DNA from: Octopus vulgaris
Taxonomy: Eukaryota
DNA: 64,000 bases
Direction: 5' to 3'
Assembly (NCBI GenBank): GCA_951406725.2
Contig: OX597824.1
Location: 39,990,001-40,054,000, forward strand
Part shown: piece by piece, positions 1 through 2,060 of the stretch
Layout: each line of letters opens with the position of its first letter
Position numbering within the stretch: the first letter of the stretch is position 1
The notes under the pieces: model-generated
The model's database searches: none
What the model was told of the DNA's origin: nothing
What the model saw: the letters and a program-made list of their open reading frames with translations, nothing else
Program-made: the position numbers and the translations under genes

Positions 1-555
1 ATCAAGTCACTAGTTTGGAGATAACTTCTTCCATCCCTCTCATTCGTCGCTCAAAGGCCCTGTGAACGGCCACACATACTGCATTCCTTCCTGAGTAAAA
101 GATTAAAATAGACACCTAATTGTCACAGTTCCAGTCCAACAGGCGGTAAATAGGTGCCAGTACGGCTGTGCGACTCAAAACTTCAAACTTTGGAAGCATT
201 AATTGTTTCCAACACAGGTACGAAGTAAGAAAGTTTATAGGAAAGGACAGATCAATTAGAGTACTAGAATGGTACTTTATTTTACTGACCCTGAAAGGAC
301 GATAGCAAAAGTTGATATGGGCGGGATTTAAACTCAAAACATAAAAAGCCGTGGAAATTACCGAGAAGCATCTTATCTGTCGCTCTAATAATTATACTAA
401 TCCACAACTCAAATATTACCTAAGAATAGGCGTATATGTAGCTGTGTGGGTAGTAAGTCTGCTTTGTAACCATAGGATTTTAGGTTCGCTTCCACAGCGC
501 AGCGGCAGCTTGGGCAACTATTATTATTATTATTATTATCATTATTATTATTATT

Positions 556-1110
556 GAGTGAGAGAGTAGTGCATGCCATCAGAGTGACACTGGGGTAAAA
601 TAAACGAAGCCCAGTATACCCATCATGACTACCCGTCTGATAAGGGTACACTAGGCACATGCATCACAACCATATGTGCGCGACATGGTGATCTCACATC
701 AAGATAAACAGCACATGACCTTGCACGTGGGGACCAGTTAGAATTTTCTTCTGGTCGAGTAACCCATCCCGCTCAAAAGGTCCTTGAATAAGGGTTGTTT
801 AAGGATGTTGAACGAAATACCCATGTTTCCAAAGGTGAATTAGTCAAATCCCAAAGAATTCGTCTCAACACACGGCTATGATGCTCCCCCACTACTTCTG
901 CTCATGATTAGAGATGCACATATTGTCAGCCACTAACTGACATGCTCAACTTGTTGTGGTCAAACAACTGACATGCAAATCTATGGTATTGAGCAGAATA
1001 TTTGCTGTAGGCCTTCTTTTATACCAAGTCAAAACAATGTACATGATAACACTTCCAATCAGTTAAGATCAGAAGCCATGAGAGCCACTGTCTGGTACTG
1101 CATCAGGGCA
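556..1110 (-). mobile_element. 555-bp non-coding (TAA)n-embedded retro-element, full-length copy 1
   Basis: Same length and ends as 41967-42521 (~93% identical by eye count); flanked on both sides by (TAT)n; no ORF or TIR; polarity inferred from truncated copies. Confidence 0.85.
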
Positions 1111-1159
1111 TTTTATTATTATTATTATTATTATTATTATTATTATTATTATTATTATT

Positions 1160-1921
1160 GTCATTTACTTTTAATCTGCATGTTTGATGCAATCACTTGC
1201 CGGGGCACACCCAGCGCCCTAGGGCCAGTGAAGGTTAAGAGTTGTTGAAATATCGCTGAAAGCTTGGGGAGGGGAAGTAGAGAAATATCTCCATGTAATA
1301 CAAACACAAACATTTACATTGATAGGGTTTTTCTAAGGATGTGGGCAGTACTTGTTAGCACAATCTTTTGGATTTCCTTGAGACATGGTTCTCCAGGGAT
1401 ATTGTCTAGGTGTTTCTGACATCCCTTTTTTATCATACCTAGGGCACCTACAATAACAGGAACAGTTTTTGTTTTAAGATTCCACATCTTTTGTATTTCG
1501 ATTTCTAGGTCCTTATATTTACTAAGTTTGTCAAATTCCTTTACAGATACATTTTTATCAGTGGGGACGCTTACCTCTATTAGTCTGCAGGTATTTTCTT
1601 CCCTGTCTTTAACAATTATGTCTGGTCGATTAGCCTTGATCGTTCTGTCAGTGTTGACTGGAAAATCCCAGAGGATGGTGACATCCTTACCTTCAACAAC
1701 TGACTGAGGATGGTGTTCATACCAGTTAGCAGGAGTGTCGAATTTGTAGTATTTACATATCTTCCAATGTATATACTGTCCTACCCTATCGTGACGATTT
1801 TTGTATTCGTTTGGTGTCAGCACAGGACATCCCGAAACGAGATGGTCTATCGTTTCGTCAAATGTGTCGCAGAATCTGCATTTAGGGTCAGTACCGTTTC
1901 GGAGAACGTTAGCCTGGTAAT
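1160..1921 (-). mobile_element. 5'-truncated R4/Dong-clade non-LTR retrotransposon (CCHC knuckle + restriction-like endonuclease, 3' UTR, (TAA)n tail)
   Basis: Uninterrupted frame ~1921-1314: CRFC..ETIDHLVSGC, RHD, ILWDFPV.TD, NRPDII..IEVSVP, KLSKYKDL, PVIVGALG; embedded in (TAT)n on both sides. Confidence 0.93.
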
Positions 1922-2060
1922 TTATTATTATTATTATTATTATTATTATTATTATTATTATTATTATTATTATTATTATTATCATCATCATCATCATCAT
2001 CATCATCATCATTATTATTATTATTATTATTATTATTATTATTATTATTATTATTATTAT
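1922..2060. repeat. Compound (TAT)n/(CAT)n microsatellite
   Basis: Direct reading. Confidence 0.95.

Follow-up and report, generated by a model that had tools for sequence, protein, structure and literature searches.

A TAA-targeted, non-coding 555-bp retroposon of Octopus vulgaris, probably inserted by Dong/R4-type LINE enzymes

Introduction

In the accounts cited below, site-specific LINEs with a restriction-like endonuclease (RLE) are described as recognising their own 3' UTR, and the passengers described for them, i.e., SIDEs and the SINE-like elements of Entamoeba, keep that tail. Drosophila's R2 SIDE and R2/R1 hybrid SIDE are site-specific, non-coding elements of ~530 bases, with junctions as in the autonomous partner and a structure that is not of the polymerase III type (Eickbush and Eickbush 2012, PMC3414825). 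A 555-bp element that we describe here from an octopus genome resembles them in all these respects. As portrayed in the same source, however, the ends of the partner can still be recognised in R2 SIDEs, which also have an HDV-like ribozyme that was tested and stay in rDNA, whereas the octopus element has no detectable partner sequence in the families sampled and occurs in tens of thousands of dispersed copies.

The Entamoeba elements EhSINE1, EdSINE1 and R4-N1_ED, accompanied by EhLINE1 and R4-1_ED, are ~540 bases long and travel with R4-type LINEs, as the octopus element probably does, and they share with it the lack of a known small-RNA precursor or promoter, as far as the cited accounts go (PMC2996970, PMC3747384). 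Unlike the octopus element, EhSINE1 is reported to have a ~70-base 3' overlap with its LINE, internal repeats, long target-site duplications, a target preference that is T-rich only, and 393 copies (PMC2996970). Elements of the Dong type (R4 clade), described from Bombyx (PMC3774820) and as octopus Dong-R4 (PMC13282606), agree with the element in TAA target, orientation, junction phase and 5' truncation. Dong encodes a reverse transcriptase and an endonuclease, whereas the element encodes nothing and has no detectable UTR sequence in common with the families examined. Alu and the relaxed-type SINEs of L1 (PMC3747384), which reach very high copy numbers, would be its analogues if only a simple-repeat tail were recognised. 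In contrast to Alu, the element has no 7SL or tRNA head and no B box, carries TAA rather than poly(A), and uses a sequence-specific target.

The element departs from the described passengers in that it has no detectable sequence in common with any Dong family examined. We found no description of it in the literature searched, Repbase, Dfam and the deposited octopus library lying outside that search. An octopus repeat study counts 893 unclassified SINE families and 5 Dong-R4 families as recently active and prints no sequences for them (PMC13282606), and the element family may therefore already sit unnamed in an octopus library.

Results

Four copies in the window

The window, i.e., the whole 64-kb stretch of DNA analysed, contains all four copies reported by the first-pass annotation (Table 1). 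In 4/4, (AAT)n flanks both sides on one and the same element strand, and the two short copies are 5'-truncated with the 3' end kept, as had been proposed. Both complete copies measure 555 bp and are 92.8% identical; the further claim that their ends are identical holds at the extreme termini and fails within the last 20 bases, where differences occur. Copy 3 has a variant at its last base. Copy 1 and the neighbouring Dong-like fragment have an array and their orientation in common, as annotated, and over 776 bases that fragment shows 97.9% identity with a complete LINE copy elsewhere in the genome. Two further repeats of the window lie apart from these copies: a 1-kb inverted duplication (26473-27477 and 28748-29713, 95.7% identity) around a simple-repeat block, and a short interstitial (TTAGGG)n-like run at 5493-5552.

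Table 1. Features of the 64-kb window that concern the 555-bp element and its Dong-like neighbour
Feature	Position	Strand	Remarks
(TAA)n array, 3' side of copy 1	519..555	-	
Copy 1, full-length 555 bp	556..1110	-	5.4% from family majority
Element positions 102-271 within copy 1	840..1009	-	Common to a separate 490-bp terminal-inverted-repeat element elsewhere in the genome
(TAA)n array between Dong 3' end and copy 1 5' end	1113..1159	-	
Family A Dong-like LINE fragment, young, 5'-truncated	1160..1923	-	Zinc knuckle, restriction-like endonuclease region, 3' UTR
ORF of the Dong-like fragment	runs to 1317		Stop 1314-1316
(TAA)n/(TGA)n array, truncated 5' end of Dong fragment	1922..2061	-	
Arrays around copy 2, (AAT)n	37303-37368 and 37429-37443		
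Copy 2, 5'-truncated	37368..37428 (start 37367/8)	+	Element positions ~494-555, last 62 bases
Copy 3, 5'-truncated	41801..41887	-	Element positions 469-555, last 87 bases; array common with copy 4
Copy 4, full-length 555 bp	41967..42521	-	2.0% from majority; arrays 41889-41966 and 42525-42635

Target, orientation and truncation

Flanks were surveyed in 312 sequences (1.73 Mb) from which noticed duplicates of the window or of each other had been removed. (AAT)n follows 165 of 180 intact 3' ends and precedes 107 of 128 intact 5' ends in this set, and (TTA)n does so at 0/180 and 0/128, respectively; 15/180 3' ends and 21/128 5' ends fall outside the AAT class as defined. The fixed-position sample described below gives the same picture by itself, with (AAT)n at 17/19 and (TTA)n at 0/19. 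As a chance level, 94 (AAT class, ~1%) and 167 (TTA class, ~2%) of 9,139 sampled window positions precede such an array.

AATAAT comes directly after position 555 in 118 of the 125 matches that end there, and the phase of this 3' junction is that of the 3' ends of Dong families A, B and C. The seven bases before position 1 read TAATAAA in 41 of the 64 matches listed; on the 5' side too the phase agrees, the element's junction being ...AATAA plus one A and that of Dong families A, C and D ...AATAA plus G. In 6/97 full copies, the first 15-25 bases of the element are repeated in tandem at the 5' junction, and a similar 5' tandem duplication is seen in Dong A (L051, L054) and Dong B (L142).

Truncation falls mainly on the 5' side. 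Loci picked by the last 80 bases are 5'-truncated in 18/29 cases, and those picked by the first 82 bases lack the 3' part in 3/29; loci picked by the middle (n=18) comprise 14 full copies, 4 with 5' truncation and 0 with 3' truncation. The fixed-position sample (n=23) holds 6 full copies, 13 that have only the 5' end truncated, 3 only the 3' end, and 1 both. Bystander matches, which were unselected, speak against a clean polarity, since 12/61 are without the 3' part only and 10/61 without both ends; several of the odd ones, not all, can be put down to partial repeats stacked where another copy begins at its 5' junction, to internal deletions or to the inverted-repeat element treated below. A clear AAT array at the truncation point is wanting in 20 of 39 5'-truncated copies. 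Priming inside the element, at an AATAAT close to position 270, was considered and rejected, with one clear case among 41 3'-truncated matches. The fixed 3' end and variable 5' truncation of target-primed reverse transcription are thus present, with the bystander exceptions noted. Together, the flank and truncation counts bear out the earlier description of a TAA-targeted, mainly 5'-truncated element in one orientation, and the patterns named in advance as contrary to it (many copies outside (TAA)n or in random orientation, symmetric truncation, identity with a LINE 3' UTR) did not appear when looked for. One copy (L135:2283-2851) has an inverted 5' part, with positions 1-156 reversed relative to 141-555, as in twin priming.

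Abundance and age

An unselected sample of 80 pieces of 10 kb each, placed at fixed, round coordinates (799,900 bases), was searched with a profile and yielded 24 matches covering 7,898 bases, or 0.99%. Scaled to the genome, this corresponds to ~84,000 copies (Poisson range 54,000-125,000); a single locus with the last 45 bases repeated in tandem supplies three of the 24 matches, another match is the inverted-repeat element and one is marginal, which makes the lower half of the range more likely. A genome search with copy 1 returned 7,973 first-look candidates, and the 40 that were scored all cover at least 544 of the 555 bases at 94% identity, the query itself excepted.

Divergence from the family majority spans 1.1%-12.3% in 78 copies, and one decayed copy reaches only 84% identity to its best relatives. 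At the young end, the full copies at four loci (L011, L013, L020, L022) are identical over the aligned columns; they belong to a set of 102 drawn mostly from similarity searches, in which young copies are over-represented. Identity at four different loci indicates that the element moved recently. Contigs of four sequencing runs presumed to be RNA contain the element, its strand and ends not being readable from them; the runs listed are coded as six organisms. An empty site for L013 was sought in four runs, and none of the contigs spanned the arrays.

A middle segment shared with a 490-bp inverted-repeat element

At two loci, element positions 100-271 lie between other flanks that are similar to each other. 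A search with that flank alone returned 2,624 candidates, and the 30 loci fetched, including the query (L293-L322), all run on into the segment, whole or in part. The majority sequence, built from 21 of the 30 after 9 interrupted, partial or query loci had been left out, is 490 bases long; its inverted arms measure ~100 bases and are imperfect, and TA adjoins each end (e.g., L294 ~1450-1950). The stretch beside the right arm agrees with element positions 102-271 in 164 of 170 bases; copies of this inverted-repeat element lie 6-12% from their own majority. Two of the six differences are decayed CpGs in the inverted-repeat element, and at the other four, old copies of the 555-bp element carry its own base in at least 22 of 25. 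Because the old element copies already hold the element's bases, a DNA transposon probably captured a piece of the abundant element; judged by these sequences, capture in this direction appears likelier than the reverse, and a mosaic origin of the 555-bp element is less likely. This 170-base sharing is new.

Anatomy of the element

The earlier report of no ORF, terminal inverted repeat or clear B box was confirmed in every part. The longest open stretch in six frames of the family majority is 59 codons, the best terminal inverted match is 6 bases, and no B box is found on either strand with up to one mismatch allowed. ARAGORN finds no tRNA in the element, and the element contains no poly(A) signal. 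To the earlier account we add a weak A-box-like 12-mer at element positions 24-35; this word may have arisen by chance, as may a reverse CCAAT near 52 and a TATA-like word at 88. Nothing detected so far in the way of a promoter or ribozyme accounts for the element's uniform 5' end. The head (tRNA, 7SL or 5S) and the A and B boxes of a strict SINE are accordingly not recognisable in the sequence.

Rfam gives no match at the gathering score over window positions 400-2200, with 7 weak matches far below the cut-off. No hammerhead is called by Rfam, and two CUGANGA words are by inspection without a following stem II. An HDV-type descriptor has 0 matches in the element and also 0 in four Dong 5' ends meant as positive controls. 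Compared with shuffles over its whole length, the element has a folding z of -3.48 on the sense strand and +0.30 on the antisense strand; control sequences reach values like that of the sense strand (-3.96 for the Dong A 5' region, -2.84 for the Dong B ORF), and 120-base windows of the element stay at or above z -2.3. Shared variants keep predicted pairs in 26 cases and break them in 23, as against 58 and 230 for singletons, a comparison confounded with transitions, and no clean compensatory pair change was seen among element copies. A search for an A-to-I editing footprint found A>G no different from T>C in five subsets (p 0.19-0.95).

Dong-like LINE families of the genome

The genome contains four young Dong-like families, A-D, with open frames of 1,227-1,344 codons and copies 97-100% identical, together with older Dong-like families. 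Family A has a single frame of 1,344 codons and a TAA target; in B, C and D the frame spans about 1,230-1,320 codons, and the identity with A is 46-54%. Pfam finds RVT_1 and a weak zf-RVT in all four proteins, and no AP-endonuclease family. We take these proteins to carry a zinc knuckle and a PD-type restriction-like endonuclease motif. None of the best 120 protein matches is named Dong or R4, so that the label 'Dong/R4' rests on architecture and target; family A starts with GCTCC directly after TAA, the same as the Bombyx Dong primer given in the cited source (PMC3774820). Among 659 AAT arrays with non-simple upstream sequence, all recurrent LINE ends that could be assigned are Dong-like.

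Dong-like 3' UTRs have in common an AGG-hairpin motif ~55-65 bases before the 3' end (L052, L032, L021, L008, L048, L098), a candidate protein-binding site. The 5' regions are more diverse. Those of families C and D are long (L148 ~942-1850; L154 ~402-1960; L157 ~369-1990, element strand) and share a short motif, followed by a splice-donor-like word and an AT-rich stretch resembling an unspliced intron in a 5' UTR; the 5' end of family B is short and different, and the four young families may differ in how transcription starts. Family B copies are 100% identical over 224 residues and very often have open frames of 811-815 or 437-439 codons, which suggests widespread subfamilies with common breaks.

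Search for a partner sharing the element's ends

The suggestion of a partner that is merely a different Dong family whose 3' end matches has found no support so far. The element gives no local-alignment signal over shuffles against whole families A-D or their first 400 bases, these being the four families whose full-length 5' ends were seen. The sample covers part of the Dong diversity, as the supplement of an octopus repeat annotation has 51 Dong-R4 consensus sequences (PMC13282606). Against the 3' UTRs of nine Dong-like family types, only family H scored, and the signal was lost on retest: z was 3.8 with 0/200 shuffles on one copy (1 of 17 comparisons), and 269 of 1,000 shuffles reached the score against a 25-copy majority. 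Two of thirteen further AAT-adjacent ends scored high. One proved to be an element fragment in the flank; the other, the end of a tRNA-headed SINE (z 3.9), came from a stretch that contained an element copy when viewed more widely, and neither supported a match to a LINE end. The element's best score with a weight matrix for the Dong hairpin is 4.2 bits against a shuffle mean of 3.7, with a matrix that recovers 6/9 families at 16-25 bits by leave-one-out and is blind to B, which is very young, J and G. Blastx against families B-D finds no protein remnant in the element. In keeping with the SIDE definition, 3' homology to a partner 3' UTR was looked for and is not detectable in the sampled families, and the SIDE-like part of the original reading is thus not supported so far, there being no match to the 5' ends of A-D nor to the nine 3' UTR types.

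The converse possibility, that the element is a piece of a Dong LINE, was rejected: it is absent inside 14 family-A loci and 20 loci of families B-D, save for separate neighbouring copies, which agrees with the earlier view that it is not the long 3' UTR of a LINE. Family I, suggested as parent by a junction at L048, has the element near its copies only as separate insertions. A profile search in 154 loci revealed neither a longer parent nor older relatives, save decayed copies and the inverted-repeat element. On these sequence tests of sampled families, there is no sign that the element is a Dong UTR, a SIDE or a tRNA SINE.

At four loci (L048, L101, L127, L166), the 5' part of the element is joined directly to the 3' part of a Dong-like LINE with no TAA between. 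The LINE part belongs to family C at L101 (99%), to family D at L166 and to old families at L048 and L127; L101 has templated extra bases and L166 a short shared word at the join. These features fit deletion repair as well as template jumping, and the chimeras therefore do not name the partner.

Discussion

The element is probably a non-autonomous retroposon inserted by a Dong/R4-type enzyme via target-primed reverse transcription. This is the part of the first-pass annotation that we retain as most likely, because junction phase, target, orientation and 5' duplications match those of Dong families. From the insertion anatomy seen at the loci, we infer how the RNA would be made, inserted and recognised. 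A master copy would be transcribed through its 3' end into the TAA array; a Dong protein, supplied by at least one of this genome's Dong/R4-type LINEs, would nick a TAA array and prime reverse transcription at the 3' end of the RNA; and incomplete synthesis and template jumps would leave truncated and duplicated 5' ends. Recent activity shows in the identical element copies and in the intact ORFs of the young Dong-like families.

Recognition is the weakest step in this scheme. Since no Dong-derived tail is detectable, we tentatively favour recognition of the (UAA)n stretch in which the RNA ends, with its shape perhaps contributing; such recognition would parallel the use of poly(A) by L1. The principal competitor is a true SIDE or a stringent SINE whose ends come from an extinct, unsampled or too diverged Dong and whose conserved 3' structure is read by a living Dong protein, which we regard as rather unlikely. 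R2Dwi_SIDE, which measures 529 bp and has a 197-bp middle part from an unknown source (PMC3414825), is similar in size and behaviour, several old Dong-like families have 5' ends that lie outside the sample, the sense strand folds better than shuffles and the antisense does not, and the hairpin matrix cannot see B-type tails. Yet the published SIDEs are given as keeping 64% and 81% identity to partner ends (PMC3414825) and the element gives no signal that held up with A-D or the nine 3' UTR types, its hairpin score barely differs from that of shuffles, and neither a protein remnant of families B-D nor clean compensatory pair changes were found. The (UAA)n tail is preferred over this unseen stringent partner, and what these two readings leave is divided between recognition by shape only and other enzymes.

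Among other enzymes, that of a Penelope-like element or of a TAA-tailed LINE (RTE- or I-type) could act through pairing of the tail with TAA arrays, with no sequence-specific endonuclease. TAA-tailed LINEs exist, as the I element is reported to be (PMC3747384), an octopus RTE is said to end in a microsatellite (PMC9115989), two tRNA-headed SINE types in this genome end in TAA, and the L135 copy has an inverted 5' part. The 5' side of the insertions makes this improbable, however, as a tail alone would not put (AAT)n at 107/128 5' ends in Dong phase; moreover, of the clusters before AAT arrays in 1.73 Mb, none was recognised as the end of an AP-endonuclease LINE, and the hammerhead search by Rfam was negative, with the two CUGANGA words lacking stem II. 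A solo LTR or a DNA-transposon derivative is a highly improbable and largely refuted reading. The termini become TG...CA if one flanking A is counted, the TATA-like word at 88 (TATAAAAG) and the reverse CCAAT near 52 would suit an LTR, and 170 bases are common with the 490-bp inverted-repeat element. The element shows truncation on one side, strand-specific targeting of microsatellites and tandem duplication at the 5' end, none of which an integrase or transposase produces. Nor does it have a poly(A) signal or a terminal inverted repeat (best 6 bases), and the tabulated 3' and 5' flanks of the sampled loci show no common internal region. As for the transposon, the inverted-repeat element has only the middle, and there the bases typical of the 555-bp element are already present in its old copies.

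A bolder extension of the (UAA)n-tail reading is that Dong-type enzymes are relaxed, would accept any RNA ending in (UAA)n, and have in this way amplified an unrelated, promoter-less 555-base RNA to ~1% of the genome. We consider this doubtful at present; if true, a site-specific restriction-like LINE would serve as an engine of retroposition in general, with microsatellite targeting built in, and would be to the RLE clade what L1 with poly(A) is elsewhere. The element is an ordinary SIDE if its ends occur in a Dong family outside the sample. A passenger with no detectable tail in tens of thousands of copies makes the relaxed mode of such an enzyme directly testable, and this question bears on SINE origins and on the template rules of R2-like enzymes for RNA-templated gene insertion. 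The element also accounts for ~1% of the sampled genome, which libraries built automatically would probably leave unclassified.

Other repeats with AAT arrays were seen in the sampled loci. A short tRNA-like SINE (L211:500-588; also L008, L087, L140, L268) ends in CTG followed by (AAT)n in Dong phase, with no TAA at its 5' side, and forms inverted head-to-head pairs in 5 of the 10 loci listed. At L270, a tandem satellite begins at ~335 with a period of ~369, its unit includes a short AAT array, and 27 units were counted.
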